Counted from the stretch's first letter, positions 1,992-36,375 are shown. The stretch: DNA of 36,375 nucleotides from Candidatus Micrarchaeota archaeon (GCA_964548595.1 CAZJQO010000015.1:1-36375), one strand, 5' to 3'. Notes: generated by a model from the letters alone, not told the origin. A program made the numbers and translations.

Positions 1992-2073
1992 GCAGTGTTT
2001 TGCCTAGTGTGGAGTCCATGTGGCTTGCGTCAACAAAAAGACAACGTCAAGGATTAGGATTCATTCAACACGG

Positions 2074-2565: not shown

Positions 2566-3035
2566 GTTTTTCCTCTCTGCTCAACATGAAAATCAAAGGA
2601 AAAGTCTATTTTACTTTCCTTGCGAAAAACGTCTGTGAAAGTCCTTAAAAACAAACTAATTAAGTACGTATTATAGTCAATCAACAATTAAATTTAAGCC
2701 TGAATTATGTGCATATTTTAGCATTTACCGTGTTACAAGCCTCATATCAACATGGATTTTGTTTGAACAAAGTAGTATGTTACGCAACATAGTAAAGATA
2801 AAGCAATACTTCCTCTCCCGCACGCAACCCACCCGCACACCGCCCAAAACCCATGCTGCGGCTACCACGACGACAGGGACGTAAACGCCGCAATGAACAT
2901 ACTCAACAGAGCTAGGGCGGGACACGCCCGAAGTGACGCCTGTGGAGATACAGCCTCTGCAGTCCAGCGGGGATTGCAAGCAGCGTTGCCGAAGCAGGAA
3001 CATACCGGCAAGGAGTATCCACAATGTCGAATGCC

Positions 3036-4556: not shown

Positions 4557-5366
4557 ATGATTGGCATAGTCTACTCCAGTCGGGACGATACCGCTGTGCG
4601 CATGGCGAGGCACATGGTGCAGTCGAATGGCCTGGAGGAAGCGGGCCCGGGCAGCATGAAGTATAAGGGAGACAAACTGGGCGTATATGAGCTAGACGGG
4701 CCCCTGCTGGACAGCAGCGTTCCTGACTCGCTTGGCTGCGATGCCATAATTTTCCTTAGCAAGCACGTGAGTGAGGCAGGAGTGGCATCTTTCACCACGC
4801 ATTCCCTTGGCAATTGGGGCAATAGGGCAAAGTTCGGAGGCAGGCCAGGAGAGCTCACTACAGCGTCTCCGCTGCTCATGCTTCAGGCACTGCGCGGGCT
4901 CGCAAGCAAAGACTCAGATGCGGAGAAGACATACGAGGCTACGCATCACGGTCCCCTGCTGAAGACACCATGCCTCTTCGCGGAGCTCGGTGGCAACGCG
5001 CAGATAACGGGCAACGAGCAGGCTGTAGATCGTGTGGCAGACGCTGCGTATGAGGCTGCCGTTCTCTTCGCTGACGGGCCAGTTGATTACAAAAAGGTGG
5101 TGATAGGGATAGGCGGAACCCATTACCCGAGCAAGTTCACCAAACAGGCTCTTGAATTTGGCTACGCCTTCTCGCACATAATGCCCAAGCATGCGATATG
5201 GAACGAGGACGGCACCAGCAACCTCGGCATGATAGCGCAGGCGATGGAAAGGAGCCAGGTGAAGCCAGAGGCAGCTGTTGTGGACTGGAAGAGCCTGAAC
5301 GCAATGACAAAGGCGGAAACAATTAAGAAGCTGAACGAGGTAGGGCTTGAGTATGAGAGGGTATAG
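4557..5366 (+). CDS. dtdA: D-aminoacyl-tRNA deacylase, archaeal DTD2 type
   Basis: The 269-aa ORF carries the DTD2 blocks FLSKHVSEAG, THSLGNWG, YEATHHGP and IGIGGTHY. Confidence 0.8.
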   Translation: MIGIVYSSRDDTAVRMARHMVQSNGLEEAGPGSMKYKGDKLGVYELDGPLLDSSVPDSLGCDAIIFLSKHVSEAGVASFTTHSLGNWGNRAKFGGRPGELTTASPLLMLQALRGLASKDSDAEKTYEATHHGPLLKTPCLFAELGGNAQITGNEQAVDRVADAAYEAAVLFADGPVDYKKVVIGIGGTHYPSKFTKQALEFGYAFSHIMPKHAIWNEDGTSNLGMIAQAMERSQVKPEAAVVDWKSLNAMTKAETIKKLNEVGLEYERV

Positions 5367-7131: not shown

Positions 7132-7171
7132 CAACTTTTATCTTTTTTGACAGATAACTAGTTTCGATACC

Positions 7172-7690
7172 ATGAAGGTTGCTATAATACTGGCGCCCAG
7201 GGATTTCAGGGATGAGACAGTATCGCAGCTCGGGCTCTTTTTCAGCAAGAAGGATGTGGAGGCGAAGCTGGTGAGCACCACGCTGAAGCAGTGCACCGGC
7301 TCCCACGGGGCTGTGGCGAAGCCGGAGCTGGAGATTGACGCGCTCAACCCGCTGGATTTCGACGCCGTGCTGGTAGCCGATGGCTCTGGCGTGGACTCGC
7401 TCAAGATGTTCGACCACAGGCCGCTGCTTGACCTAATCAAGCTCTTCAAGGATGCGAACAAGGTGGTGATAGGCATAGGCAACGGCATCAAGGTGGTGGC
7501 AAGGGCCAACATAATCAAGGATGTAAAGATAGCCGATTCAGACGCGGAAACGAAGAAGCTGGTCTCGCTATACAGGGGCAAGCCTGTGGACGAGCGCGTG
7601 GTCAGGGATGGCAACATAATAACAGCAACGGGCAACGAAGACATTGCGGAGCTGGTTTCGGCTATGCTTGCGCAGCCCGCTGAAGCCTAG
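7172..7690 (+). CDS. DJ-1/PfpI family protein lacking the nucleophile cysteine
   Basis: The 172-aa ORF has a DJ-1/PfpI-like layout (MKVAIILAPRDFRDETV, FDAVLVADGSG, VVRDGNIITATG). At the nucleophile elbow, where the family has (A/I)ICHGP, this protein has GIGNGI. Confidence 0.65.
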   Translation: MKVAIILAPRDFRDETVSQLGLFFSKKDVEAKLVSTTLKQCTGSHGAVAKPELEIDALNPLDFDAVLVADGSGVDSLKMFDHRPLLDLIKLFKDANKVVIGIGNGIKVVARANIIKDVKIADSDAETKKLVSLYRGKPVDERVVRDGNIITATGNEDIAELVSAMLAQPAEA

Positions 7691-8006
7691 CGGCGGGCTT
7701 GTAGAAAGAATGAGTCTCTGCGCCGCAGTCGCAGATGTAGACAAGGTAGCCGTGCGAGCTCGAGAGCCTGACTTTGCAGTTCACTCCGGGCACCATGAAG
7801 CTGCCGCACTTTTTGCATATCCTGTGCTTCAGCCCATCAGGGATGCGCACCTTGTAGTGCGTGCTTATTCGCCTCGCTATCATGACGTAGCGCTTTTCGA
7901 GCTTTTTTGACATATCTGTTAGTTCCTTTGCACGCTCCTCCGCCATGCCGAGCAGTCTTCGCATCCTGTCCGCTGCTACTTTCTCCACGATCGGAGGCTT
8001 ATTCAT
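7662..8006 (-). CDS. rnp4: RNase P protein component 4 (Rpp21/Rnp4)
   Basis: The 114-aa ORF has an N-terminal helical part (RMRRLLGMAEERA...RYVMIARRISTHYKVRIP). A zinc ribbon follows: CKKCGSFMVPGVNCKVRL...ICDCG. Its 3' end overlaps the DJ-1 gene by 29 nt in convergent orientation. Confidence 0.8.
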   Translation of the reverse strand: MNKPPIVEKVAADRMRRLLGMAEERAKELTDMSKKLEKRYVMIARRISTHYKVRIPDGLKHRICKKCGSFMVPGVNCKVRLSSSHGYLVYICDCGAETHSFYKPAARLQRAAQA

Positions 8007-8052
8007 AAAATTGCCCTATGCCTGAGAAGCGCGCAGGCGCTGTGCCAAGAGA

Positions 8053-8127
8053 TGGGCCCGAGGAGATTTGAACTCCTGACCTACGGCTTATAAGACCGCC
8101 GCTCTAACCAGGCTGAGCTACGAGCCC
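8053..8127 (-). tRNA. tRNA-Ile with anticodon UAU
   Basis: The reverse complement reads GGGCTCG-TA-GCTC-AGCCTGGTTA-GAGC-G-GCGGT-CTTATAA-GCCGT-AGGTC-AGGAG-TTCAAAT-CTCCT-CGGGCCC-A. This folds as a full 75-nt cloverleaf with U33, anticodon TAT and A37. CCA is not encoded. Confidence 0.85.
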
Positions 8128-8175
8128 CTTGACGCTTTATATATCTGCAATCTTTAATAATATCGAGTCGGTCGA
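8128..8175. promoter_or_regulatory. Compact divergent promoter region for tRNA-Ile and srp54
   Basis: The 48-bp spacer holds two A/T boxes. CTTTATATAT (8135-8144) lies ~36 nt before the srp54 ATG. CTTTAATAATAT (8152-8163) lies ~30 nt upstream of the tRNA 5' end on the other strand. The two promoters therefore interleave. Confidence 0.35.
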
Positions 8176-9483
8176 ATGGACCTGGGCGAAGGGCTGCGCA
8201 GGGCTGTTGCAAGGCTTAGCGGAGCCACCATAATAGACGCCAAGGCGATAAGGGAATTCAACAAGGAGCTCCAGCGAGCCCTCATATCTGCGGATGTGAA
8301 CGTGGAGCTGGTGCTCGGGCTTACGCAGAAGCTGGAGCACGCTGCGCTGAGCGAGAAGCTGCCGCAGGGCGTCACTGCCAGGGACTACATAACGAACATG
8401 CTCTACGAGGAGCTGATAGGGCTGATGGGTGCTGGCTTCGAGCCAGTTCTGAAGCCCAAACGCGTGCTACTGCTTGGCCTCTACGGCTCCGGCAAGACCA
8501 CAACATCAGCCAAACTGGCCAAGTTCTACCAGGAAAGGGGGCTGAGCAGCGCGCTGATAGCATGCGACGTCTCAAGGCCCGCGGCCTATGAGCAGCTTGA
8601 GACACTGGCAAAGCAGGCAGGCGTGGGCTTCTTCGGCATCAACCACGAACGTGACGTTAGGGAGATAGTGAAGCAGGCTGTTTCAGCGCTCAAGGATAAG
8701 AAGGTGCTGATCTGCGACACCAGCGGCAGGAATGCGCTTGACAACGGGCTGATCAATGAGCTTAAGGCAATAGTCGATGAATTCAAGCCGGATGAGAAGC
8801 TGCTTGTGATAAATGCCGACACAGGCCAGGTGGCGGGCAGGCAGGCCAGGGAGTTCAACGAGGCTGTGAAGCTCACCGGCGTGGTAATAACAAAGTTGGA
8901 CGGCTCTGGCAAGGGCGGCGGCGCATTGAGCGCTGTAAGCGAGGCGAAGGTGGGCATAGAGTTCACCGGCACTGGCGAGAAGCTCAACGCACTGGAGCTC
9001 TACGATGCGAAGAAGTTCGTGGGCAGGCTGCTGGGCATACCGGATCTTGAATCGCTGGTGGAGAACGTCCAGAAGGCGATAAAGGAGGCGGAGGTGAAGC
9101 CTGAGCAGATGGCGAGCGAGGAGCTGAACTACAGCACCTTCTACGCGCAGCTCAAAGCGCTGAACAAGATGGGCCCGTTAAAGAACGTGATGAGTATGAT
9201 GGGTATGAGCGACGTGCCCAAGGAGACTTTTGAGCAGAGCGAGGCAAAGCTTGGCAAGTACAAGGCGATTATAGACTCGATGACGCCCGAGGAGAGGACA
9301 AGCACGGGCGGATTGTTGAGCAGCGCGAGCAGGATAAGGAGGATAGCAAAGGGAAGCGGCTGCAGCGAGAAGGAGGTGAAGTCTATGGTGAGTGACTTCA
9401 ACAAGATGAAGCGCCTTTACGCCAAGATGCAGAATGACAGGAACCTGAGAAAGCAGATGTCAAAGTTCATGCCGAAACAGTAG
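8176..9483 (+). CDS. srp54: Signal recognition particle protein SRP54
   Basis: The 435-aa ORF carries the GTPase motifs GLYGSGKTTT, DTSGR and TKLDGSGKGG. The C-terminal M domain is Met-rich (MGPLKNVMSMMGM). Confidence 0.95.
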   Translation: MDLGEGLRRAVARLSGATIIDAKAIREFNKELQRALISADVNVELVLGLTQKLEHAALSEKLPQGVTARDYITNMLYEELIGLMGAGFEPVLKPKRVLLLGLYGSGKTTTSAKLAKFYQERGLSSALIACDVSRPAAYEQLETLAKQAGVGFFGINHERDVREIVKQAVSALKDKKVLICDTSGRNALDNGLINELKAIVDEFKPDEKLLVINADTGQVAGRQAREFNEAVKLTGVVITKLDGSGKGGGALSAVSEAKVGIEFTGTGEKLNALELYDAKKFVGRLLGIPDLESLVENVQKAIKEAEVKPEQMASEELNYSTFYAQLKALNKMGPLKNVMSMMGMSDVPKETFEQSEAKLGKYKAIIDSMTPEERTSTGGLLSSASRIRRIAKGSGCSEKEVKSMVSDFNKMKRLYAKMQNDRNLRKQMSKFMPKQ

Positions 9484-9530
9484 GTGTTGTAGTGGGTCTC
9501 TGGAAAGATCAGGCAACGGCGCTTACCCAA

Positions 9531-9578
9531 GAGGCGCTGCGGGCTGAAGCCCGCAGAGGTTCATAGAGCCAGCGCCTC
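9531..9578 (+). other. Nested GC-rich hairpin downstream of srp54 (possible 3' structure or small RNA)
   Basis: The outer 9-bp stem GAGGCGCTG / CAGCGCCTC encloses a perfect 8-bp hairpin, CTGCGGGC-TGAA-GCCCGCAG. The structure starts 48 nt after the srp54 stop, inside a 250-bp ORF-free spacer. Confidence 0.3.
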
Positions 9579-9733
9579 TGCAAAGTGTTATATAGGACTT
9601 CGTGCCAAGGGCATACGCGTCGTATCTGTTTTAGCAGTATGATGACTAAAAGGAAAGTGTGTGCGTCTTGAACAAGGCGCCTGGCCAGCAGCCTCAGTAC
9701 GCTACTCCTTTTGTGTTTTAAGAAAGTGTCAGA

Positions 9734-11029
9734 ATGAAGCAATTTTCAGAGATGAATCTGAAGCCTGAGGTAGTGGAGACGCTGCGAAGGATGGGCTTCA
9801 CAACAGCGACTGAGGTGCAGGAGCATGTTATACCTGTGGCGATGCAGGGCAAGGACCTTATAGTAAGGGCGAAGACAGGCACAGGCAAGACCTTCGCGTT
9901 CCTTGTGCCCATAATGCAGCGCAACGTGGAAACAAAGACACCCGCGGCTCTGATCATAGTGCCTACAAGGGAGCTGGCGCTGCAGATACACAGAATAGCG
10001 GCTAAGATGAGGCTTGGAAACGAGAAAGAAGTGGCTGTGGTCTACGGAGGGGCGTCGATAAACGTCCAGATGCAGAATCTGGCCAGGAATCCGGCGCTGG
10101 TAGTTGGCACTCCAGGCAGGATAATAGACCTCTTCAAGAGGAGGGCGCTCATGCTTGGCGACATAAGATTCGTGGTGCTTGACGAGGCCGATACGATGTT
10201 CGACATGGGCTTCATAGACCAGATAGAGCAGATACTGTCAAAGACGCCAAGGACAAGGCAGACACTGCTCTTCTCCGCCACCATGCCTCAAAGGATAATA
10301 AGCGTAGCAAGAAAGCACATGAACGAGCCCACGCACATAAGCATAGGCAGCGAGGAGGAGCCTGTGGTAACGCAGATACAGCACTTCTACGCAGACTCGG
10401 AACGCGAGATGAAGTTCGCCACCCTGCTTGCTTACATAAACAAGTTCGCGCCCAGGAAGGCTATAATATTCGTGCAGACGCAGCGCGCTGCAAGCATGGT
10501 CTACGAGACGCTGACCGGGCAGGGTATCGGTGCCACGCTGATACACGGCGGCCTGACGCAGTCCAGCAGGGAGCGCGCTCTCAGTGAGTTCAGCGCCAAA
10601 GGCAGGTTCCTTGTGGCAACCAACATCGCGGCCAGGGGCATAGATATAGCTGGCATTTCAGACATAATCAACTTCGACGTGCCCAACGATCCGGTTGTTT
10701 ACGTGCACAGGGTCGGCAGGACCGCCAGGATGGACGCGAACGGAAGGGCGTTCACCATAGTCTGCCGCGAAGAGAGGTATCTGATCAGCGAAATAGGGCA
10801 TGAGAACAACATACTGATGAACCAGGTCAACCTTGACATTGCGCCGTATGCCGGCATCAGGATGTTCAGGCATAGGGGAGGTTCGGGCAGGGAAGGCAGG
10901 GACAGGCACGGCGATTCGCGCCGGCATGGGCAGAGACAGGGGCACTACGACAACGAGAGGGGCCGGGGCGGTTACCGCCGCGGAGGCGGTTCGCACGGCT
11001 GGAGCAGACCCACGTGGGCAGCCAGATAA
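9734..11029 (+). CDS. DEAD-box ATP-dependent RNA helicase with an RG-rich C-terminal tail
   Basis: The helicase motifs are present: AKTGTGKT (I), PTRELA (Ia), VLDEAD (II), SAT (III) and HRVGRTAR (VI). The tail is RGGSGREGRDRHGDSRRHGQRQGHYDNERGRGGYRRGGG. Confidence 0.9.
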   Translation: MKQFSEMNLKPEVVETLRRMGFTTATEVQEHVIPVAMQGKDLIVRAKTGTGKTFAFLVPIMQRNVETKTPAALIIVPTRELALQIHRIAAKMRLGNEKEVAVVYGGASINVQMQNLARNPALVVGTPGRIIDLFKRRALMLGDIRFVVLDEADTMFDMGFIDQIEQILSKTPRTRQTLLFSATMPQRIISVARKHMNEPTHISIGSEEEPVVTQIQHFYADSEREMKFATLLAYINKFAPRKAIIFVQTQRAASMVYETLTGQGIGATLIHGGLTQSSRERALSEFSAKGRFLVATNIAARGIDIAGISDIINFDVPNDPVVYVHRVGRTARMDANGRAFTIVCREERYLISEIGHENNILMNQVNLDIAPYAGIRMFRHRGGSGREGRDRHGDSRRHGQRQGHYDNERGRGGYRRGGGSHGWSRPTWAAR

Positions 11030-11284: not shown

Positions 11285-11609
11285 AGGCCCGAGAAATCGC
11301 AAGGGGCTGCTAGAGTCTGCCTTTGAGCTCTGTGATCTGTATTAGGGCATGAGCGTACGCCCCTTCCAGACTGGGATTTGTCCATTCTGCCGCATACTAT
11401 GACGTGGCGCAGAAGTGGCGCGCCGGAATCAAGAGGCATGATGCCCCAAAGTTTCAGAAGATCGAGCGACGCGTGTGGAAATCCACCATTTGCGCAAGTG
11501 GAAAAGGTACGTGTTGGCATACTCCAGCGACTAAAGGTCAGGCCTGTCGCTGAAGGAGCGAAATGTAGCCTGCTGTCTCCAAATCTATGGAAAAGGTTAA
11601 AATCCTATA

Positions 11610-12101
11610 ATGCGTCAGGTATTCATGGCGATCAGATATTGGGAGTTTGAAGACGCTCCGCTCAAGGAGAAGCTGAAGATGCCCAACGTAAAAGAGGTAT
11701 CGAGAATATTCTTCGACAACGAGACCAGGGCTTATAGGTTCTCCAAGGCGCTGCTGGCTGTAAAAGGGAAGCAGGCTACACAGCAGGCGCTCCGCCTGAA
11801 GGACTGCGACAAGTCGCTGCCCCTAGCTACCTGGAAGCGCTACCTTGATTTCGGAGTTGCTGTTGGTATGCTGAAGCACGAGGGTGGCGCTTACGCCTTT
11901 ACCGACAGGTACTCGAAGCCCTTCAAGAACATGACCACTTACATAAAGAGCTGGATGGAGGCGAAGGAGCAGGAGGACATAGATCTGCTCTTCGCTCAGG
12001 CACGCACAGGCAGGCAGCAGAAGCGCGGCGGCAGGCCCACGGCAGATGGAACCGCTGGAGATTCGGTCACAGCAGTGGATCCAAAAGGGCCGGAAACCTA
12101 A
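11610..12101 (+). CDS. Hypothetical protein, possibly winged-helix
   Basis: This is a 163-aa ORF. The segment ATWKRYLDFGVAVGMLKHEGGAYAFTDRY looks like the recognition helix and wing of a wHTH. The C-terminal tail appears disordered and is rich in R, G and Q. The start could instead be the ATG at 11625, about 25 nt after the A/T box TTAAAATCCTATAA. Confidence 0.45.
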   Translation: MRQVFMAIRYWEFEDAPLKEKLKMPNVKEVSRIFFDNETRAYRFSKALLAVKGKQATQQALRLKDCDKSLPLATWKRYLDFGVAVGMLKHEGGAYAFTDRYSKPFKNMTTYIKSWMEAKEQEDIDLLFAQARTGRQQKRGGRPTADGTAGDSVTAVDPKGPET

Positions 12102-12356
12102 TGTCAGGTATTTAATCCTGTTGCATGTGTTTTGAGCTATTAAAAGTTACGTAATTTACAAAATTATAATGCGAATTGCTTTTAATATATTACAGATCGT
12201 CATTCGTTGGTTTCCTACAGGTGCGCAGGCAGGCGCAGGCATGCGGAAGCCAAATGGCCGGTGGCGCTGGGCGTAGCTGGCCATATACCTGTGTATGAGC
12301 CTATAATGGTAATATTTTTTAAGTTAAGAGATTTATTGTTTTTGTAAGGTGAAAGA

Positions 12357-12539
12357 ATGGGCACAAAAATAGGGGCATTCGGAAGGATGTATGTGAGCAC
12401 CAATAAAGTAGTGTTTGTTGCGTCAAATCCTAACTGTCCTAAGATGGTACTTGCAGGCAACAGCAGTAAGCTCAGAGACGACTATAACAAGGAAATGCGC
12501 ATAGGCAGGAATCTGTTGAAGAAGTTTGCCGTTCTCTAA
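12357..12539 (+). CDS. Small hypothetical protein (60 aa)
   Basis: The ORF is preceded by the SD-like AAGGTGA 4 nt upstream and by an A/T-rich box (TTTTTAAGTTAAGAG). I recognise no domain. Confidence 0.3.
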   Translation: MGTKIGAFGRMYVSTNKVVFVASNPNCPKMVLAGNSSKLRDDYNKEMRIGRNLLKKFAVL

Positions 12540-12548
12540 TCTTCCTTG

Positions 12549-13577
12549 TCAGCGATTTTCCTCGCCAGCGTTAAGTTCGCTTCTGTAATGTTCGTAACTT
12601 TCTAAATGTAATGGCCATTGGCCGACTAGAACGCCGCTCAATATGGCCTTCTCTATTTTTGGCTTTTCAGGAGCCCACAACGTGCCCAACAGCTCCGGTC
12701 CCCTTTTTATCATCTCTTCTCCGTTTCTGAACGAACAGATATAGAAGGCATCAAAACCACCGTTAGTATCTGCAACCAAACAGTAATCGTTGCTAGCTTC
12801 GTGCAAATCCTCTTTTATTATTTCCTGCACAAATTTGGCCAAAAGCTCGCTGTGCTGTTTTATAGGGAAGAGCTGAAGGCTATAGGCAAGCAGCAATTTC
12901 TTATCCGTATTCTGCGTAAGCATAGAAAATTTCCTGATTATTCCTTTCTCTTGTAGTGCCTTCATTGCGTATATTACGCGCATCTGCGTGCTTTTGCTTT
13001 TTGCTGTGAGATCCTTAAGTTTCATTCTGGAATTCTCATTGAGCAAGCAGAGCACCTCTTTCTCCATCTTGTTTATCGCTGTGCTTTCCTGTATCAGCTC
13101 TCTGCGCAACGGAAAGAAGCCTGTGGCGCTGAGATTAAGTGTTGATATCTTAAAGAGAGGCACGTATTCGCTGAGATCCTTCCTTATGTTGAATTGCCAT
13201 GCCTGGAAATCGTTGGGGTTTAGCCCGACTATGTATAGCAGGAGGTCAAAATCACCCGTAGCAAGATAAGCATCTTGTACAAAAATATCTTTTTTAAGCC
13301 TGTTTTTAAGGTAACCAATTTCTGGCACTTTCTCAAACTTTACCGTTATTATCCTACCCTCGCTGAATCCAAGCCTCTGCTCGTCTAATTCCAGCGTGTA
13401 TGTGAGCCCGTACTTCTCCTCCAGTTTCTTCAACGTCTCTGCCACTGTGTGGTAGCTTATGTTGAACTGTCTGCCCAATCTCTTCAACGGCGCCCTCGAG
13501 TCGTTGTACAGGTACATTAGCAGCTTGTACGGCAGTTCGCTCTTCACGAATTCCTGCGTCTTCCTCGATGCCGGCAT
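12549..13577 (-). CDS. Tandem (duplicated) Lrp/AsnC-like transcriptional regulator
   Basis: The 342-aa ORF has two HTH-plus-RAM modules. Module 1 has YKLLMYLYNDSRAPLKRLGRQFNISYHTVAETLKKLEE, then IITVKF...GDFDLLLYIV. Module 2 has EKEVLCLLNENSRMKLKDLTAKSKSTQMRVIYAMKALQEKGII, then LLLAYSLQLF. It is a paralogue of 603-1991. Confidence 0.6.
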   Translation of the reverse strand: MPASRKTQEFVKSELPYKLLMYLYNDSRAPLKRLGRQFNISYHTVAETLKKLEEKYGLTYTLELDEQRLGFSEGRIITVKFEKVPEIGYLKNRLKKDIFVQDAYLATGDFDLLLYIVGLNPNDFQAWQFNIRKDLSEYVPLFKISTLNLSATGFFPLRRELIQESTAINKMEKEVLCLLNENSRMKLKDLTAKSKSTQMRVIYAMKALQEKGIIRKFSMLTQNTDKKLLLAYSLQLFPIKQHSELLAKFVQEIIKEDLHEASNDYCLVADTNGGFDAFYICSFRNGEEMIKRGPELLGTLWAPEKPKIEKAILSGVLVGQWPLHLESYEHYRSELNAGEENR

Positions 13578-13849
13578 ATATACATCTCTAAATCATAACA
13601 TGTATCTATCATAATGAACTAAGTGTGTATTATGTGGTTCTTTTAATCCAATAAGTATAAATATCCCTAACGCCATATACTATAGCATGGGAAAGGGTAA
13701 CAGGGTATGGTTTGGTGCGCTTAGCACCTCTGCTTTTAATTATGTATCCCACCCACAACAGAGCATGCCTGCCCTGTCTCTTTCCCATCCCACCCTTCTC
13801 CTTTCACAGAATTCTTCCTGATATATTAACGCTTATCGGAGTGGAGCGT

Positions 13850-14134
13850 ATGGCCGCAAACAAAAAACAATATGCGGGCAAGAGCACAGGTGGCTCTTCG
13901 ATGTGTTTTCTGATGCTGGAGCCGAAAGGTATGACCGACAGCGGTGCAATAGCCAGGCGCATAACCAAATGCGAAGGCGTCAAGGAGGTGCATCTAACTA
14001 GCGGAAGGTACGGTTTCATCGTGACTGCGCAGTCGCAGGATGAGAACGGACTAGGCAGCATAGGCAGCTCGGTGAAGATGGCCTCTGGCAGCAAAAGCGT
14101 CAGCATTGCAGTAAGCCACATGATCTATAGGTAG
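13850..14134 (+). CDS. Stand-alone RAM (Lrp/AsnC ligand-binding) domain protein
   Basis: The product is 94 aa from the ATG at 13850, which has an SD-like GGAGTGGAG and the A/T box ATATATTA ~29 nt upstream. CFLMLEPKG...CEGVKEVHLTSGRYGFIVTA matches the beta-alpha-beta-beta pattern of RAM domains. It is transcribed divergently from the tandem Lrp gene. Confidence 0.55.
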   Translation: MAANKKQYAGKSTGGSSMCFLMLEPKGMTDSGAIARRITKCEGVKEVHLTSGRYGFIVTAQSQDENGLGSIGSSVKMASGSKSVSIAVSHMIYR

Positions 14135-14536: not shown

Positions 14537-15313
14537 CTATGTGGAGTTTATAGTCTGGTTCACTGGCTGCGTAACGTCATTGCCTGGTTCGCTGCCTGTG
14601 TAGAAGCCCGTTACCGCTATGTAGTTCTTGCCGCTGGCGGAGCTGCCCGTTATGCCGGCCACCACCTTTATGCTTACGTTCTTGCAGAGCAGGCTCGCTA
14701 TCGGTATGCTGGCGTTGACGAACGTGCTGGCCGCGTTCGCCACTCCTGTTGGGGAGACGTAGGTGTTGTAGTGCGTCGTTATCACCGGTACTCCGTTGCT
14801 AAGCACCTGTACGTAAAGGAGCGAGCTCTGCGACGATATGAGCTTGAAGTCCAGGTATGGCTCTGTTACAGTGAACTGGGATGATGTGAGGTTGCCCGGC
14901 GACACAGAGAGTCCGCGGCTGTAGGTTGTGGCAGCATAACCTCCGCTGTAGCCGCTCCAAGGCGCGGCGTAGTACTCTCCGTACTCGTTGGCATAGGTGA
15001 GGTTGAAAGGAACTGTGCCGAAGCCTGCGCCTGTGGCGTTCCATGATGTGTATGTTCCGCTGGAGAAGTTGCCGCCTGGTATCGGTTCGATGGCGTTGGG
15101 GCTTATGCAGCTGCTGTACTTTATGGTAGAGGTGCTGAGGCTAACAGGCTCTGCGGTACTGGTTCCGTGGCTTGCCAGCGTTGTGGTGGAGGTGCTGTTT
15201 AGTGTAGTCGAGGATGTGCTGGCACTAGTGCTTGTGTAATGCTGGTAAAGGGCAGCCGCAACTATAACAATTATGATGAAAATTGTTATGTATGTCAGTA
15301 TGCTTTTTTGCAA
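14537..15313 (-). CDS. Membrane-anchored or secreted S/T-rich glycoprotein
   Basis: The 258-aa ORF starts with TTG. It has an N-terminal hydrophobic anchor (ILTYITIFIIIVIVAAALY) followed by an S/T-rich linker. I count ~9 N-x-S/T sequons. Confidence 0.5.
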   Translation of the reverse strand: MQKSILTYITIFIIIVIVAAALYQHYTSTSASTSSTTLNSTSTTTLASHGTSTAEPVSLSTSTIKYSSCISPNAIEPIPGGNFSSGTYTSWNATGAGFGTVPFNLTYANEYGEYYAAPWSGYSGGYAATTYSRGLSVSPGNLTSSQFTVTEPYLDFKLISSQSSLLYVQVLSNGVPVITTHYNTYVSPTGVANAASTFVNASIPIASLLCKNVSIKVVAGITGSSASGKNYIAVTGFYTGSEPGNDVTQPVNQTINST

Positions 15314-15421
15314 CGCAGCACCAGCAAACTAACCTTTTATAATATAAGTAGTAATAAATAGCTGCTTAGGATCGGTGCTCGTTTGGGAAGTATACCCAGG
15401 AAATGGAAGAAGAAGGGAAGG

Positions 15422-15496
15422 ATGCGATGGAAGTGGGTGAAGAAGCGCAGGAAGAGACTCAAGAGGGCACAGAAGCGCAGGGTAGGAGAGCTCTAG
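15422..15496 (+). CDS. rpl41e: Ribosomal protein L41e (24 aa)
   Basis: ATG CGA TGG AAG TGG GTG AAG AAG CGC AGG AAG AGA CTC AAG AGG GCA CAG AAG CGC AGG GTA GGA GAG CTC TAG translates to [24 protein letters not shown]. This matches the L41e pattern M-x-x-KW-x-KKR-x-x-RLKR. The ORF is too short for the ORF track. Confidence 0.65.
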
Positions 15497-15506
15497 AGGT
15501 GCTTTT

Positions 15507-16124
15507 GTGCGCGTAGTGGGCCTGGATCTCGCAGGCAGCGAGAAACGAACCACAGGTTTTTGCTTCATGACCGAGAGGATGGACTGCAAGACACTGCCTC
15601 TCCATACAGATTCCGAAATAATGAAGTCCACGCTAGACTCAAAGCCTGATGTGGTAAGCATAGATGCGCCTCTCTGCCTGCCCAAAGGGCGCAAAAGCCT
15701 CGAACAGCGCGGCCCTCCACACCTCAGAGCCTGCGACAGGGCCTTGTTGAAGATGCACATACGCTTCTTCCCGATAACGCTTGGCCCCATGCGCATGCTC
15801 ACGGCCCGGGGCATCGCGCTGAAGAAGAAGCTCGAGCGGAAGGGGCTGGAAGTGATAGAGAGCTTCCCCGGGAGCGCGCAGGACGTGCTGGGCATGCCCA
15901 GGAAGCAGCAGGGCTTGGAGAAGCTCAGGAAGGCGCTGATAAAATACGGGATAGGGGGAGACACGAGGAAGAAGGAGATGACGCACGACGAGCTCGACGG
16001 CATAACCTGCGCCATAGTGGGCCTGAAGTACCTGCAGGATGACTACACCGCGCTTGGCGACGCCTCTGAGGGCTACATGATACTGCCCAAAATAAGTAAA
16101 AGATTCGAGAGGCTTTTGCGATAA
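15507..16124 (+). CDS. DUF429-like predicted RNase H-fold nuclease
   Basis: The 205-aa ORF starts with GTG. VVGLDLAGSEKRTTGFCF...PDVVSIDAPLCLP...THDELDGITCA resembles the DUF429 pattern. It starts 10 nt after rpl41e. Confidence 0.5.
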   Translation: MRVVGLDLAGSEKRTTGFCFMTERMDCKTLPLHTDSEIMKSTLDSKPDVVSIDAPLCLPKGRKSLEQRGPPHLRACDRALLKMHIRFFPITLGPMRMLTARGIALKKKLERKGLEVIESFPGSAQDVLGMPRKQQGLEKLRKALIKYGIGGDTRKKEMTHDELDGITCAIVGLKYLQDDYTALGDASEGYMILPKISKRFERLLR

Positions 16125-27451: not shown

Positions 27452-28354
27452 CTATGTCCTCTCCAGGCTGGCTATTATGGCGTCTCGTATTCTGTCTGCC
27501 GCAGCCAAACTATCCTCGCTAGTTCGCGGAATAGCCATTGTAACTTGCACAGGCTGCATTGGCGGCATTGGTACAGTGACATACGGGTTAAAGACAAGTT
27601 TTGTTTTGAATATCTTGCGCGTCTCATCGCTCACATCGATGTTGTATGCCCTTTTTATGCGCCTCTCTGCTGAGGGTAGCAAGGAAACTATGTATTCAAG
27701 CACCTCATCGCGTCTCAGGAGCTTAAATTCCTTTTGCAGTTCCTTATTTTCTATGGCTAGAACGTTGTCCCTTTCTTCTTTCGGCATCGCATCCTTATTC
27801 CACGTGCGTTCGATGGGCAAGAGGATGCGATCATAAACACGGGCGTCCATCCGCCTCCATGATCTGTTGCTTTCAATCTCCCGTATCCTACCTACCCTAG
27901 AGATTTCCTGTTCTGCGTCACTTTGCCCTATCACCGCGACGCTTTGGACGCTTCGCAGCGGTTCCAAAAAACTATAGTCGACATATATCTGCAGCCTATC
28001 TTCGTAAACGCCTATGGACACCTGGTTTCCCCAAGAAGAATCCACGTCCACTCTGTGTTCAGGGGGCAGCAGCTCCCAGTCGCCTCTGCATTTTATCACG
28101 TCGTAGCCTTGCACTTCTCCCCTTCCGCTAAAACCAAAACCCCTCTTATCTCGAGCAGTGAGAGCGAGTCCGAGCGCAGCGTCCCTGAATCCTTCCTGAT
28201 TTTCCAGTGCACGAAAATACTCTGAAATAGAGGGTACACTGCCGCCAAAGTGGTGTGCAATTATTTTGGCCTCACTTGGCATAGCCAGGTAGTCCAGAAT
28301 AATTATCTTGTTTTGTTTGAATTCAACGTAGCTTCTAGTGCTTTCGGCTGTCAT
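27452..28354 (-). CDS. Hypothetical protein (300 aa, no recognisable domain)
   Basis: This is a long ORF with no TM segments. It is transcribed divergently from the dnaK-operon regulator gene across an A/T-rich spacer. It looks AT-richer than its neighbours. Confidence 0.5.
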   Translation of the reverse strand: MTAESTRSYVEFKQNKIIILDYLAMPSEAKIIAHHFGGSVPSISEYFRALENQEGFRDAALGLALTARDKRGFGFSGRGEVQGYDVIKCRGDWELLPPEHRVDVDSSWGNQVSIGVYEDRLQIYVDYSFLEPLRSVQSVAVIGQSDAEQEISRVGRIREIESNRSWRRMDARVYDRILLPIERTWNKDAMPKEERDNVLAIENKELQKEFKLLRRDEVLEYIVSLLPSAERRIKRAYNIDVSDETRKIFKTKLVFNPYVTVPMPPMQPVQVTMAIPRTSEDSLAAADRIRDAIIASLERT

Positions 28355-32038: not shown

Positions 32039-33091
32039 TCAGCCTATCCTTGCGCTCTGCCCCGCGTTGTGCCTTCGTATCACTGTGACGAGCATTAGTG
32101 CCAGTATGGCGACTGCGGCCGCGAAGAGCAGCAGAGAGAGCGGCCAGTTTATCAAACCTTTGGTGAGCAGCTCTATGCCCAATCCGACGCACGCGAAGGC
32201 AAAGAGCGGGGGTATTGCGGGCAGAGCAGTGTCGTAGCGCTTCGACACATGCATGGCGAATATAAGGCCGAAGCTCGCCGATGCTGTGAGCACCACGCTG
32301 AAGAAGAAGCTGAAGTACGTGGTGTATGCGCTCACAGCCAGCATAAGCGGTATTGCAAGGTCGCCAGTGCCAAGGGCCGAGAGCGCGGGCACAGGCACGA
32401 TGCCGCTCCTCATAAGCTTCCTCACTTCGCTGTTCTTCGTGTTCTTGAATAAGCCGAGCATCCTTTTGGCCTCGCTCTTCTTCAGCGAGCTTTGCGGAAC
32501 CAGCTCCACATCGTAGCTACCAACCATCAGTGCCGTATTGCCCTGTATGCTTGCCTTTGCCAGCGTGAGCATGTGCTTTGTCACGAAGACGGCAACGTAA
32601 TCGTATACGGCGATGAGCGCCATGAGCACGAGCGCGACGAAGAAGGTGAAGAAGAGGCCCAGCACCAGGCCCACGCCTATGCTTGCTATTATGGCGGTTG
32701 TGTTCCTCAGCCACTGCCATCTGTTCTTCGATAAGATGAGCACTACCGCCAGCAACGCCGCAATGCCTACGGGAAGCGCCACGCTGTTAGGGAAGACGAA
32801 CGAGAGAATTATCAGGAACAGGTAGAACGAGGCTATGCCCACCACTATGGCCTCGATTCCCTTGAACAGCACCGGCCCGTGCCTGGAGCGGAAAAGAAGC
32901 ACTAGTGCAATACCGCCGGCAACGATATACGCAAAGTACAGGAATACCTCACCAGAGAAGCCGGTGCCCATGCTCGTAGCCTGCACCTCGCTCGGCGTTA
33001 TCAGCCCGAAAGCGACCAGCACTCCGGCAAGCTGTACGATCAGGAAGAAAGCGAGTATGTTTGTGAGCTGCCTGTACTCTATGAGCTTCAT
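32039..33091 (-). CDS. Presenilin / signal-peptide-peptidase-like intramembrane aspartyl protease (A22 family)
   Basis: The 350-aa polytopic ORF has the catalytic signatures LIAVYDYVAV (YD) and LGTGDLAIP (GxGD). The downstream ALPAIPPL is PAL-like. Confidence 0.6.
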   Translation of the reverse strand: MKLIEYRQLTNILAFFLIVQLAGVLVAFGLITPSEVQATSMGTGFSGEVFLYFAYIVAGGIALVLLFRSRHGPVLFKGIEAIVVGIASFYLFLIILSFVFPNSVALPVGIAALLAVVLILSKNRWQWLRNTTAIIASIGVGLVLGLFFTFFVALVLMALIAVYDYVAVFVTKHMLTLAKASIQGNTALMVGSYDVELVPQSSLKKSEAKRMLGLFKNTKNSEVRKLMRSGIVPVPALSALGTGDLAIPLMLAVSAYTTYFSFFFSVVLTASASFGLIFAMHVSKRYDTALPAIPPLFAFACVGLGIELLTKGLINWPLSLLLFAAAVAILALMLVTVIRRHNAGQSARIG

Positions 33092-33207
33092 CGACCACGA
33101 CCCGACAACCTAACTTTTGCGCAGGCGTTTAGATAAGCGTTTCGGATATGGCGCTGCTGTTCAGGGACCACGTTGCCCTTTCTCAATAAAGTAAATGTTT
33201 ACTACGC

Positions 33208-33312
33208 AGGGCGGGAAATATCACCACCTCAACGACCCTTTCACTGCGAGGTTGCGAGTTTAAGCCCTCGTGAGCCTTGCAAAGCAAGGCGATAGAGCTG
33301 GCATAAGGAAGA
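33208..33312. repeat. Direct repeat A (~70-nt core plus weaker ~30-nt extension)
   Basis: AGGGCGGGAAATATCACCACCTCAACGACCCTTTCACTGCGAGGTTGCGAG (51 nt) is identical to 35133-35183. The next ~20 nt are near-identical. After a divergent insert, GAGCTGGCATAAGGAAGAGAT aligns with GAGCTGAACTTAAGGAAAGAAT in copy B. Confidence 0.8.
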
Positions 33313-33316
33313 GATG

Positions 33317-33880
33317 CTAGCGTCCTGTTCTAAGGACAACTTCACTGTTTTCGAAGTCAATGAGTATGTGTTCCTTGCATGCAGTCCTCAGCTCTGTGGA
33401 ACTGCCTTGATAGAGGTGGAGGTTTATTGTATCTGTTTTGAGTTCATCTTCAATAAACCGCACAGCAGGAACGAAGTCCGCATCTCCTGACAGTATAATT
33501 ATCTTCTCGGCCTCTTTGTTTAGGGCAGTTTTTATTGCGTCAATGACAAGCAGTATGTCTATGCCCTTCTCGACAGGCAGCAGGTCTTTGTTTTTGTCTA
33601 TGCGCCTGTATTTCAACTTCCTTGTCCGAATTTTGATGGGCCACTTTGCGACTAGGTCGCGTATGCCTTGATGGAATCTCTGCTGTAGCGAATACTGCTG
33701 AGGCTCGATTGCTATGTCTTTCATAGCGTCGTAGAGGCAAATGAGCTTCAGTTCTAAGCCCATTTTCTCAAGCTCGCTGAAGAGCTTGCCGTAGTCCGCC
33801 GGCGCGAAAGGCAGCCTTCTAGATGTCTTGAGTGAATGATAGAAGTTCGAGTTATCGATAAACAATGCGGCTGTGGGCAT
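33317..33880 (-). CDS. NYN-domain (LabA/DUF88-like) predicted RNase
   Basis: The 187-aa ORF has AALFIDNSNFYH, EKGIDILLVIDA and IILSGDADFVPAV. These match the acidic-residue blocks of NYN/LabA nucleases. Confidence 0.7.
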   Translation of the reverse strand: MPTAALFIDNSNFYHSLKTSRRLPFAPADYGKLFSELEKMGLELKLICLYDAMKDIAIEPQQYSLQQRFHQGIRDLVAKWPIKIRTRKLKYRRIDKNKDLLPVEKGIDILLVIDAIKTALNKEAEKIIILSGDADFVPAVRFIEDELKTDTINLHLYQGSSTELRTACKEHILIDFENSEVVLRTGR

Positions 33881-34057
33881 AGAATCAGCAAGTAGAAGCC
33901 CAGCTTTACCGAGCTTGCGCCCGGTAACTCTGGGGACGCTATCTGAATAATCTTGTGAATGTGGTGGTTTATAAAGCTTCTTAGAGATGCAGGTTTTGTG
34001 GAATAATGAGGCCGGCTAGAGGCTTAGTTTGTAGGAGGGACGAATTAATAAAGTGTT

Positions 34058-34160
34058 CTGTCGTCGAGGGACCTTGCCAAAATAACGAACTTCCGTGTGG
34101 GAAACGCTTATCAAGTCAAGGTTAATTAAGGGGTTTCGGCATAAGCAATAGCGTGAGGAA
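34058..34160 (+). promoter_or_regulatory. Conserved promoter/5' leader, copy C (upstream of orphan X)
   Basis: It aligns along ~100 nt with 35748-35849. The shared blocks are CTGYCGWCGARGRAC, GCCAAAATAACG and TAATTAAGGGGTTYCG(G)CAKAAGYAATAGCGTGAGGAA, running directly into the ATG. The last block holds a TATA-like TTAATTAAGG and an SD-like GTGAGG. Confidence 0.65.
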
Positions 34161-34889
34161 ATGTCTGCTACACAAACAAGGGAAAGAGAGATATCCAAGG
34201 CAAGTTCTGAGATGGGGGTTCTTACTAAAGTAGGCACCAGCTATCAAGACTTTCCAGAGGGAACAAAATGGAGCCAAAGAATCCGTATTTATGATGAAGC
34301 TGTGGAAGTTTTGAACAAGGCTACTGAAGCGCCTCTGGTCGCGTTCGGCTACTGGAGCAGGGTCGAAGTCTATTCGCGTTTCGGGGGGGGCTGTCGTGCT
34401 CGGGTGGCGCTGGAGGACGAGAAGGGAAACGTCAGCCTGTCTGATTGGAAGGTAAGTTCGGTAGAAGAAGCAGAGAAGATAGCGAAGGAAAAGGACCTGA
34501 AGCTTGCGGGAACAAACATGCTTTTAAACACTGCATTTATAGAAAAGTATGCAGGCGTAGTCGTCGTATTTAGTTCCAGAAATGCGTCAGCATTGAATGC
34601 CGGGGAATTCCAAGATGCATACTACTTGGTCAGTGCTGCAAGAGATGCTCTTTCATCGAAAGCAGGTGGCCTGACAAGTGCAATAGACGCCGAATTGAAG
34701 AAAGTGCAGAGCAGAAGGGCCGAGATAAAGGAGGAGGACGAGAAGCTTGCTAAGAGGGAAAAAGAGCTTCAAGAACTGAGGCCAAAGGCTGAGAAAGCAG
34801 AGAAAGACGAGGTACAGGCTAAAGAACTCCTAAAGGGTGCCGCAGACAGCAAGGAAACCGTACTTGAGGAACTGCAGCGAAGCGCATAA
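34161..34889 (+). CDS. Orphan protein X: globular N-terminal half plus K/E-rich coiled-coil tail
   Basis: This is a 242-aa ORF. The C-terminal ~70 aa (KKVQSRRAEIKEEDEKLAKREKELQELRPKAEKAEKDEVQAKELLK) look like a coiled coil. I recognise no domain. The ORF contains a G8 homopolymer at 34383-34390. Confidence 0.5.
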   Translation: MSATQTREREISKASSEMGVLTKVGTSYQDFPEGTKWSQRIRIYDEAVEVLNKATEAPLVAFGYWSRVEVYSRFGGGCRARVALEDEKGNVSLSDWKVSSVEEAEKIAKEKDLKLAGTNMLLNTAFIEKYAGVVVVFSSRNASALNAGEFQDAYYLVSAARDALSSKAGGLTSAIDAELKKVQSRRAEIKEEDEKLAKREKELQELRPKAEKAEKDEVQAKELLKGAADSKETVLEELQRSA

Positions 34890-35132
34890 ATATCTGAAAT
34901 ATCCTTATTCCTCTACCTGGGTTTGTGCGGAGAAATCCCGCAGGCTGCGAGCAATCGCAGGTGCAGACTTGGGTCCACACATCCGTCTATAGTGCTGATT
35001 GGCTTAAGAAGCAGATCAGCCATGAAATTCAACAGCGACACTGGGTAGTCCCAGGCTGAAATCGTGAAGCTGTGGTGCCGCCACGGAAGTGGCCTGACGT
35101 TGCTGCTCGGGTGGCTGAGGTCAGGCAAGAAG

Positions 35133-35232
35133 AGGGCGGGAAATATCACCACCTCAACGACCCTTTCACTGCGAGGTTGCGAGCTTAGAGCCCCTCGTGA
35201 GCCTGCGAACGAGCTGAACTTAAGGAAAGAAT
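35133..35232. repeat. Direct repeat B (partner of 33208-33312)
   Basis: See repeat A for the alignment. Copy B sits directly upstream of the A/T box (GAAAGAATTTAACA) and start codon of the RelB-like gene. Confidence 0.8.
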
Positions 35233-35260
35233 TTAACACCAGTCTTGACACAATACTAAC

Positions 35261-35461
35261 ATGGAAATGACTGCTACGGAAATGAAGATGATAGGCAGGA
35301 AGCTTGACAGGCTTGAGGTTGAGGTCACGAGGCTAAGGGCTAGGCTGATACCCACAGAGAAGATAAGTGAGAAGGAGAAAAGGGAGCTGAAGGCTGCCGA
35401 GAAGAGGATCGCCAAGGGCGAGTGGATCAGTTTCGAAGAGCTTACCAAAGAGTTCAGTTGA
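35261..35461 (+). CDS. RelB-like / ribbon-helix antitoxin candidate
   Basis: The 66-aa ORF sits immediately upstream of a RelE/ParE-like ORF. The C-terminal EKEKRELKAAEKRIAKGEWISFEELTKEF is typical of small archaeal antitoxins that pair with RelE. Confidence 0.5.
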   Translation: MEMTATEMKMIGRKLDRLEVEVTRLRARLIPTEKISEKEKRELKAAEKRIAKGEWISFEELTKEFS

Positions 35462-35471
35462 TTGGTTATTC

Positions 35472-35729
35472 TTGATAAAGACCGACAGGAAGGTCGAGAA
35501 ATCATACAGGAAACTGCCGGAATTCTACAGGAGGCGTATTTTTGGGCTGGGCCAGGTACTTGCAATCAAACCCGTACCAGTTCACGACTATGACGTTACA
35601 AAACTTGGAGGCACGGAGGATACCTATAGGGTAAGGATAGGCGATATACGCATCTCATACGTTGTCTTTTGGGCAAAGCAGGAGATACACATATCTGAGA
35701 TCAAGTGGAGAGGTAAGGCTTACAAGTAG
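35472..35729 (+). CDS. RelE/ParE-family toxin
   Basis: The 85-aa ORF starts with TTG, 10 nt after the antitoxin stop. TYRVRIGDIRISYVVFWAKQEIHISEIKWRGKAY matches the C-terminal RelE/ParE signature (YR-R-GDYR-I-Y...I..I.HR). Confidence 0.65.
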   Translation: MIKTDRKVEKSYRKLPEFYRRRIFGLGQVLAIKPVPVHDYDVTKLGGTEDTYRVRIGDIRISYVVFWAKQEIHISEIKWRGKAYK

Positions 35730-35747
35730 TGCATACCGGGCGAAGGC

Positions 35748-35849
35748 CTGCCGACGAAGAACGCGGCCAAAATAACGGTACAGTGTGTAGAAACTGCAAA
35801 TAAAGCATATGCTAATTAAGGGGTTCCGCAGAAGTAATAGCGTGAGGAA
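35748..35849 (+). promoter_or_regulatory. Conserved promoter/5' leader, copy D (upstream of orphan Y)
   Basis: See copy C for the alignment. This copy ends at the ATG at 35850. Confidence 0.65.
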
Positions 35850-36375
35850 ATGGACCCGAAAATGAGAACACAGGAAAATCTTGCGTTCAAGGAATACAAG
35901 GTTGAGGGACTGTGCCACTCCTACTCCCTATCCGTGGCCTTTCCGACCGAGAGCGTTAATCTGGAAGAGACGGACAAGGCGCTGAACCTAAAGGGGCTTG
36001 TGCGCGCTCCCACCAGCAAGATACTGCGTGTTCTGTGCGATAATTACGACCTTAAAAGCAGGATAGTAGGAAAATGGGGCTATGCTGCCGAAAAGGGACT
36101 CGAGAAATCTGGCTGGTATCTTTTCAACATGGAGACCGGCGAACTGGAGGAACCCAACGGTGGTGGTGGGCCTGCAAAAGATCTGGTGCGTACACAGTCT
36201 GGTGATCGGACGCGCAAGGTCGGCGTCCGCCCGGACTTCGTCGCCCAGGTCGGCAGCAGGCGCTTCGGCCTTCTTGGCGTCGGCACGCCCGACGATGCTG
36301 CTTCGGTGGTTTTCGGAATCAAGCCTGATGGCGCCGCGCCGGTTGCGAAGGAACTGCGCGTGGAGAATGGGGAAA
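35850..36375 (+). CDS. Orphan protein Y (partial; open to the end of the window)
   Basis: I read this frame by hand and found no stop for 175 codons: MDPKMRTQENLAFKEYKVEGLCHSYSLSVAFPTESVNLEE...GVRPDFVAQVGSRRFGLLGVGTPDDAASVVFGIKPDGAAPVAKELRVENGE. It is absent from the ORF track because it has no stop. It is preceded by the conserved leader, including the GTGAGG SD. Confidence 0.45.
   Translation, partial: MDPKMRTQENLAFKEYKVEGLCHSYSLSVAFPTESVNLEETDKALNLKGLVRAPTSKILRVLCDNYDLKSRIVGKWGYAAEKGLEKSGWYLFNMETGELEEPNGGGGPAKDLVRTQSGDRTRKVGVRPDFVAQVGSRRFGLLGVGTPDDAASVVFGIKPDGAAPVAKELRVENGE

Follow-up and report, generated by a model that had tools for sequence, protein, structure and literature searches.

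Two orphan genes in a Micrarchaeota contig as probable hypervariable targets of adjacent diversity-generating retroelement cassettes

The window analysed here is a stretch of 36,375 nucleotides (nt) from Candidatus Micrarchaeota archaeon (GCA_964548595.1 CAZJQO010000015.1:1-36375), to the whole of which all coordinates refer. Two genes near its 3' end, designated X and Y, appear from sequence comparison to be hypervariable target genes of diversity-generating retroelements (DGRs), forming parts of two adjacent cassettes of a DGR lineage, a reading to which we assign a probability of roughly 85%. The host of these cassettes is a Micrarchaeota-like archaeon, and the lineage is frequent among DPANN archaea, Ca. 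Micrarchaeota included. In a DGR, a reverse transcriptase (RT) copies the RNA of a template repeat (TR), misincorporating opposite adenines, and the cDNA replaces the variable repeat (VR) of the target gene. The locus consists of DGR target modules, one truncated and the other ended by the end of the window, and it is not classified as a complete DGR because both the RT and the TR are missing from the window: no RT was found in it when every one of its large open reading frames (ORFs) was scanned against Pfam or when the RT of the related locus L003 was used in tblastn, and an adenine-tolerant scan of the whole window against positions 33000-36375 found no TR for X or Y. The DGR system itself is already known, and the X/Y locus adds another example. 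L numbers denote comparison loci or contigs, and P numbers (P0002, P0005, P0008) homologous proteins; the features are collected in Table 1.

Results

Gene X and its variable block

Neither X nor Y matches any Pfam, NCBIfam or PADLOC family, in agreement with the first-pass annotation, made from the sequence alone, which had recognised no family for either, and profile searches against the PDB yielded only coiled-coil noise for both and no sequence match. Three close relatives of X are found among 5.8 billion proteins, and the family as a whole is small (31 cluster representatives among 1.84e9 proteins), its members having a variable block near the N terminus and a coiled coil at the C terminus. 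One of the three, P0002, is encoded in L003, a 490-kb contig of an uncultured archaeon, where its gene is followed by a 357-nt spacer and then by an RVT_1 reverse transcriptase. Just 5' of the RT this spacer contains a TR of ~100 nt that pairs with a VR block inside P0002 (amino acids (aa) 48-82), and since the mismatches between the two are located mainly at TR adenines, in addition to a 3-nt indel, the pair bears the signature of a DGR. A reading of the X-type gene and its RT as a retron was dropped in view of this TR/VR pair with its adenine-specific differences.

The VR of L003 occupies the position homologous to aa 57-84 of X. The corresponding DNA of X is strikingly poor in adenine, with an A fraction of 0.10 at 34325-34415 versus 0.32 for the whole gene, and in a comparison of this block with the L003 TR only 7 of 27 TR-adenine positions are kept, as against 55 of 78 non-adenine positions (Fisher p 8e-5). 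The X-type DGR of L003 adjoins a 23S rRNA gene and an IS110-family transposase gene (5450-8299 and 8564-9562), and a PIN/antitoxin pair is found 4 kb downstream.

Gene Y, its variable block and its fold

A homologue of Y, P0005, comes from L008, a metagenome-assembled genome of Ca. Micrarchaeota, in which the order is RelB (66 aa), RelE (85 aa), leader, Y homologue with VR, the RNA motif RT-16 of Rfam, TR and RT. The VR (10342-10453) lies inside the P0005 gene and the TR (10841-10952) next to the RT; in the protein, the VR covers aa ~114-151, which correspond to aa ~117-154 of Y. Adenine depletion was observed here as well, the A fraction being 0.13 at 36190-36300 and 0.28 upstream, and of the positions compared with the L008 TR, 6 of 32 adenines but 62 of 96 others are kept (Fisher p 9e-6). 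In neither family alignment is any part more variable than these blocks of X and Y. In both L003 and L008, the RT directly downstream of the respective homologue matches RVT_1 (E 1e-20) and carries the motif IGNLTSQ. X and Y are unrelated as target genes, and their TR types are unrelated, too. The RT gene of L008 is frameshifted at a run of ten G (~11420-11445), at a glycine-rich insertion that reads CGGGGGQ in the L003 RT; an error in sequencing, a pseudogene or a tract prone to slippage may be the cause.

The AlphaFold model of P0005 has a pLDDT of 83.6, and in a Foldseek search of the PDB the 21 top-ranking hits are all C-type-lectin-like domains, the TM scores for the family ranging from 0.31 to 0.54 with E values of 7.6e-3 or worse throughout. 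The Y family is thus predicted from the model to have, probably, a C-type-lectin-like fold, which is the classical fold of DGR variable proteins. A pattern scan of metagenome contigs for the Y family gave 600 pattern matches, with 0 confirmed.

The wider DGR lineage

An RT scan using one genome per species yielded 80 loci, mostly from Ca. Micrarchaeota and other DPANN archaea, 63 of the archaeal loci being scanned for TR and VR. A TR was located 30-130 nt 5' of the RT in 42 of these 63 loci, in each case with a VR on the same strand; the VR lies upstream of the TR mostly by 350-560 nt, and by 290-660 nt in nearly all of the 42. A set of 18 small ORFs, picked by hand from the flanks of eight relatives, contained no match to the Avd family. 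Among viral RTs the identity does not exceed 44%, and the lineage therefore appears to be cellular.

RT-16 RNA and the missing 3' half of module 1

Downstream of X there is a copy of RT-16, which the first-pass annotation had overlooked. The motifs RT-1 to RT-19 were found near reverse-transcriptase genes by Weinberg et al. in 2017, with no role assigned; RT-10, situated between TR and RT, was the sole motif linked to a DGR, and for the others there was speculation only (PMC5737381). In the present lineage RT-16 scores above the Rfam gathering threshold in all seven relatives tested (53-79 bits; 72.3 in L003) and is placed between the target gene and the RT in every one of them, its 3' end reaching the TR in the six loci with a mapped TR, and blastn similarity to the RT-16 spacer occurs at the equivalent position in ~30 loci. 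RT-16 looks like an integral RNA component of these DGRs, 5' of the template. Among viral contigs, a 20-mer from RT-16 matched once (L119), by chance, inside a phage gene.

Over the ~200 nt 3' of X, identity to the spacer that follows the X homologue in L003 is 86%, and the L008 spacer, which follows the unrelated Y homologue, is similar as well. Although the match in the window (34915-35104) covers all 158 model positions, it attains 43.1 bits (E 1.8e-5) and thus remains below the gathering score of 50 bits, while being homologous to copies that pass; the score is lowered by the loss of the closing helix's 3' strand, which leaves mismatched pairs there, and nothing complementary to the 5' strand CCGTCTAT lies downstream in the window. 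All DNA homologies with other loci end at 35093, after which follow 39 unique bases and then repeat B. On this view X would be a retired target: from the 3' end of RT-16 onward, nothing of its cassette would be left. The reading frame of X is intact, and the gene may still be expressed from an intact promoter.

Table 1. Coordinates of the features of the X/Y locus and of the intact RT-16 copies in related loci.
Feature	Coordinates	Strand	Basis
Repeat A, copy 1 of the upstream element	33208-33312	+	54/55 identity to repeat B
NYN-domain protein, 187 aa	33317-33880	-	Pfam PF01936, E 1.7e-16
Leader C, before X	34053-34163	+	Similarity to leader D and to relatives' leaders
X, predicted DGR target (variable-protein) gene	34161-34889	+	55% identity to P0002 (L003)
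VR-homologous block of X, aa 57-84	34329-34412	+	Adenine depletion, TR-adenine test
RT-16 RNA (Rfam RF03019), 3'-truncated	34915-35093	+	Sub-threshold Rfam score, homology ends at 35093
39-nt junction, truncated RT-16 to repeat B	35094-35132		Unlike every comparison locus
Repeat B (35133-35232) and RelB-proximal promoter region, copy 2 of the upstream element	35133-35260	+	Alignment, homology to L008/L090/L091
RelB-like antitoxin, 66 aa	35261-35461	+	1wmi_B, E 4.5e-3
RelE-family toxin (predicted), 85 aa, TTG start	35472-35729	+	1wmi_A, E 3.2e-14
Leader D, before Y	35742-35852	+	Same promoter/5' untranslated region as leader C
Y, predicted DGR target gene, ends at window edge (~175 of ~197 codons)	35850-36375	+	41% identity to P0005 (L008)
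VR-homologous block of Y, aa ~117-154	36198-36311	+	Adenine depletion, TR-adenine test
Intact RT-16 copies in relatives	L003 10743-10943; L008 10640-10844; L034 9721-9879; L037 9655-9864; L015 9676-9876; L047 9673-9874; L086 9704-9864

Repeats and leaders

The repeats, leaders, NYN gene and RelBE pair that the first-pass annotation had described were all recovered where it had placed them, by alignment, by Pfam and by matches to 1wmi, respectively. Repeats A and B are copies of one upstream element, in which the near-identical part extends over 33208-33262 and 35133-35187 and the similarity continues to ~33312 and ~35232; according to the alignment, an 11-nt hairpin is present in repeat A only. 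A 30-mer from the repeat has exactly 2 occurrences in the window and 0 in 100 shuffles, and the two repeats fold no better than shuffled sequences (z from -0.9 to +0.4, repeat A having -0.9). Elsewhere, 36 nt of repeat A (33267-33302) are 97% identical to L034 8656-8691, directly 5' of a leader and target, and a weaker match to the 3' part of repeat A in L086 also stands directly 5' of a leader. The same 3' part (~33250-33312 in repeat A) is found upstream of RelB in L008 and in L090/L091: 35162-35443 is 88% identical to L090 1704-1985 and L091 211-492, and 35219-35757 is 85% identical to L008 9370-9908.

Leaders C and D are ~79% identical over ~105 nt, so that the near-identical promoter or leader sequences attributed to X and Y by the first-pass annotation hold. 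Two motifs are confined to these two leaders, namely TTAATTAAGGGGTT and a 17-mer, AATAGCGTGAGGAAATG, with its end on the start codon; a box reading TTAATTAAGGGG or TTAATTAAGG lies ~35 nt 5' of the ATG, and GAGG just before it. Judging from this TATA-like spacing, the leader is presumably an archaeal promoter with a very short 5' untranslated region. Homologous leaders precede the DGR targets of L003, L008, L086, L034 and L090/L091, regardless of target family. Because the repeat and the leader are adjacent in L034 and L086, they are taken together as a single uninterrupted 5' flank belonging to a DGR subclade; within the window, the upstream element is split from the leader by the NYN gene in module 1 and by RelBE in module 2. 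Profiles of the repeat and of the leader, run with nhmmer against ~85 loci, recovered only the sequences from which they had been built, and both are therefore conserved in a narrow subclade only. The likeness between repeats A and B and between leaders C and D reflects common descent or gene conversion between cassettes.

NYN gene and RelBE pair

In PADLOC, the NYN protein matches HEC-09 (9.5e-7) and NYN (9e-4), and tblastn found no relative of it in ~90 related loci; it has no supported link to the DGR. RelB and RelE form a predicted type II pair, being adjacent with a 10-nt gap and matching the solved Pyrococcus horikoshii pair 1wmi (aRelE as chain A, aRelB as chain B), whereas the Pfam match of the toxin is weak (ParE_toxin, E 0.088); X, Y, RelB and RelE are without a match in PADLOC-DB 2.0. 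In its RelB, the window agrees at 63 of 66 positions with the gene upstream of the Y-type DGR of L008, and RelE is 85% identical to the L008 gene. The pair recurs beside Y-like genes in two other assemblies only (L008; L090/L091) and is missing beside those of L086, L089, L074 and L045; the co-occurrence that the first-pass annotation proposed to check is thus seen for RelBE with Y-like genes, in those two assemblies, and is not seen for NYN with X-like genes. Recurring as it does in two other assemblies only, RelBE looks like a passenger or stabiliser and not like a partner of X or Y, and is probably an addiction module stabilising the cassette.

Tandem cassettes and their decay

The order of the window, namely X-like gene, rep-like sequence, RelBE, leader and Y-like gene, is repeated in the ENA contigs L090 (1-3014) and L091 (1-1684). 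These start with an IS605 OrfB (TnpB-like) gene, a leader, a 187-aa X-like gene and the rep-like sequence, and continue with a RelB-RelE fusion and a second leader with its Y-like gene, after which the initial 100 nt of RT-16 run into RelE codon 43 and a further leader follows. The fusion is in frame and arose through an internal deletion in which RelE codons 1-43 were lost, and the junction of RT-16 with RelE lies at a short CTT.G.GGGA microhomology. These fusions, and the repeated loss of sequence between neighbouring cassettes, show that the cassettes occur one after another and are eroded through deletion. L089 is another decayed DGR: the gene for ribosomal protein S2 has a Y-like gene (P0008) downstream of it, after which only a piece of the RT remains, 44 codons long (1639-1770; aa 266-309), and neither a TR copy nor, by blastn, anything similar to the RT-16 spacer was found there. 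In L086, two Y-like targets stand in tandem (8341-9000 and 9036-9626), and their VRs (8676-8758 and 9380-9447) both match a single TR (9872-9954).

Genomic context

The G+C content is 0.48-0.50 across 33-36 kb and 0.56-0.59 across 29-33 kb, as the first-pass annotation had supposed in calling the block AT-richer than its housekeeping neighbours. The remaining window is ordinary archaeal chromosome, with genes for PCNA, SRP54, Kae1, RNA polymerase subunits, GrpE-DnaK-DnaJ and presenilin, and no integrase or transposase was found in the window. The idea of an accessory, modular locus beside housekeeping genes stands, but the repeats are the shared 5' flank of DGR cassettes and not parts of a new defence system. 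Patches of low G+C also occur at 1001-3000 and 12001-14000 (0.42-0.45 versus ~0.55); they encode a 462-aa AsnC-type helix-turn-helix protein with a GNAT acetyltransferase, and a 342-aa double winged-helix protein, and may be further accessory insertions. In addition, the window contains a tRNA-Ile with anticodon TAT (UAU) on the minus strand at 8053-8127, AUA being read in most archaea by a modified CAU tRNA instead, and the housekeeping part includes sizeable ORFs without a Pfam family at 5347-7131, 7138-7644, 14537-16015 and 27452-28354.

In an exact-protein look-up, X was on no record, and NYN, DnaK and a fragment of X were found only on short Logan contigs (SRR12217122, SRR12217123). Two such contigs from these runs, L001 and L120, are 100% identical to the window and have ends at 33229, 34274 and 35084, that is, inside repeat A and 9 nt before the RT-16 breakpoint in two of the cases, where breaks would be expected if a second, intact RT-16 were present in the sample.

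Discussion

Proposed organisation of the locus

In the relatives, an intact cassette comprises the upstream element, the leader with its promoter, a target gene with its VR, RT-16 RNA, the TR and the RT, and replacement of the VR by retrohoming would here be expected to rewrite a ligand-binding surface of the target protein. X and Y would have near-identical promoters. From module 1, which consists of repeat A, the NYN gene, leader C, X and RT-16, the 3' end of RT-16, the TR and the RT appear to have been lost, and because of this loss the module would be an orphan that is probably no longer diversifying. Module 2 (repeat B, RelBE, leader D and Y) resembles the first half of an intact L008-type DGR; the absence of an RT from it reflects the extent of the data, because the window stops ~65 nt before the expected stop codon of Y, and the module most likely runs on into RT-16, TR and RT just past 36375, which would make Y a live target.

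Several observations weigh against this interpretation. With neither an RT nor a TR in the window, DGR activity in this genome is only putative, and the cross-species adenine tests for X and Y include some flanking columns and use the TRs of relatives instead of those of the genome itself. The only independent copy of X, on Logan contig L120, has an identical VR and so gives no sign of ongoing diversification. On the structural side, the AlphaFold model of X is poor (pLDDT 54), leaving its fold unreadable, and the Foldseek matches for Y are weak, the best having a probability of 0.99, E 7.6e-3 and TM 0.39/0.47. Finally, the ~40 nt with which repeats A and B begin are common to these two copies only and have no counterpart at other loci, and a 24-mer from this part had 0 matches in the genome, metagenome and viral collections; recent duplication or gene conversion is all that we can offer as an explanation.

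Alternative explanations

X could instead be a remote target, diversified in trans by a TR and an RT located elsewhere in the genome, with the truncated RT-16 as irrelevant debris. Remote, non-adjacent DGR targets are documented (PMC5758913), and the intact frame of X, a promoter as conserved as that of Y and the strong adenine depletion of the VR block speak for it as well. However, the VR lies on the same strand upstream of its own TR in 42 of 42 relatives with such a pair, and RT-16 after X is broken exactly at the expected TR start, with a similar RT-less decay in L090 and L089; moreover, X-type and Y-type TRs are unrelated, so that the TR expected for Y cannot serve X. We regard diversification of X in trans as unlikely.

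It is decidedly improbable, too, that repeats A and B are recombination sites, either att sites of a tandem mobile element or the sites of an attC-like cassette array, and that the modules are mobile units which merely happen to carry DGR targets. As direct repeats with 55 near-identical nt they do bracket a unit of 1.9 kb, the cassettes occupy different chromosomal places in different genomes, and IS110 and IS605 genes adjoin relatives. A tRNA-like fragment (anticodon and T arms) on the minus strand of L090 at 1610-1655, ~50 nt upstream of the rep-like sequence, would also be in keeping with integration, but its score is below threshold (20.7 bits, E 0.88) and it may be an integration-site remnant or chance. 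Against this stand the window without integrase or transposase and the repeats without hairpin or fold signal of the kind expected of an integron or cassette array, as well as the single copy of the element, on the 5' side only, in L034 and L086; in L008 and L090 this element is just what lies 5' of RelB. The idea of a tRNA or att site for the repeats was also rejected on finding no tRNA near them in the window.

The tandem order might have been created in assembly, two loci or strains having been joined through a shared repeat, leader or RT-16, as the metagenomic source and the Logan contig ends inside repeat A (33229) and near the RT-16 breakpoint (35084) could suggest. Such a chimera has very little probability, since the independent ENA assemblies L090/L091 have the same order and the junction at 35094-35132 is unique sequence and not a repeat, and Logan contigs also break for reasons of coverage, L120 beginning with adapter.

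That X and Y are co-regulated effectors acting with the NYN RNase or RelE in an undescribed defence or addiction island, as proposed by the first-pass annotation from the genuine NYN and RelBE genes and the lower G+C, is exceedingly improbable despite the HEC-09 match of NYN (E 9.5e-7) and the recurrence of RelBE with Y-like genes in L008 and L090/L091, given that X and Y have homologues which serve as DGR targets and are accompanied by TR/VR pairs and RTs, that NYN is in no other X-like locus, that the Y-like genes of L086, L089, L074 and L045 lack RelBE and that X and Y have no PADLOC match.

Comparison with known systems

Reportedly, DGRs of DPANN archaea and of candidate phyla radiation (CPR) bacteria were the subject of work by Paul et al. 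in 2017 (Nat Microbiol 2:17045). In a survey of such DGRs (PMC5758913) the architecture A1, target-TR-RT without an accessory gene, is described, and the relatives of X and Y, with a VR target on the same strand, a TR just 5' of an IGNLTSQ-type RT, A-to-N differences, small targets and, for Y, a predicted lectin-like fold, agree with it. The X/Y locus differs in that the window holds the target halves only, one cassette having lost TR and RT, that the X family has its N-proximal VR in a domain of unrecognised fold followed by a coiled coil, and that RelBE or NYN stands between the upstream element and the promoter. The full-length RT-16 model lies between the target stop codon and the TR in seven relatives, that is, 5' of the TR, whereas RT-10 is found between TR and RT (PMC5737381). 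With the prototype, the DGR of Bordetella phage BPP-1 (mtd-avd-TR-brt), the lineage presumably shares adenine-specific mutagenic retrohoming into a C-type-lectin-like target; in BPP-1, however, there are avd and a structured RNA downstream of the TR, whereas in the relatives studied here no avd was found and the RNA is upstream, and the X/Y locus is chromosomal and archaeal. The RelBE pair is like aRelE-aRelB of P. horikoshii (1WMI) in the sizes of its proteins (85/66 aa), in having the antitoxin first and in sequence similarity of both chains, but it is embedded in a DGR 5' flank, with 85-88% DNA identity in L008 and L090/L091; in contrast to this identity of the flank, the adjacent target has diverged to ~40% protein identity.

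RT-16, 5' of the TR, might even be a functional stand-in for Avd, in RT recruitment or in template definition, and the upstream element a recombination or regulatory site for swapping targets and passengers before one RT-16/TR/RT core, a conjecture that we consider doubtful. If it were true, the tandem array would be a platform on which target genes are exchanged and retired, and not mere debris.

Significance

The current understanding of DGRs is unchanged by the X/Y locus. The locus does advise caution: retroelement remnants should be checked for before arrays of a repeat, a toxin-antitoxin pair or nuclease, and an orphan gene are called defence systems. Two genes that could not be annotated would become members of two DPANN DGR target families, one of them probably C-type-lectin-like and the other unusual in the N-proximal position of its variable block, and an orphan Rfam motif, RT-16, gains a genomic role at its place between the target gene and the TR, in archaeal DGRs near which no Avd was found. 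Together with its relatives, the locus illustrates how DGR cassettes of these archaea stand in tandem, gain toxin-antitoxin passengers and decay through deletion.

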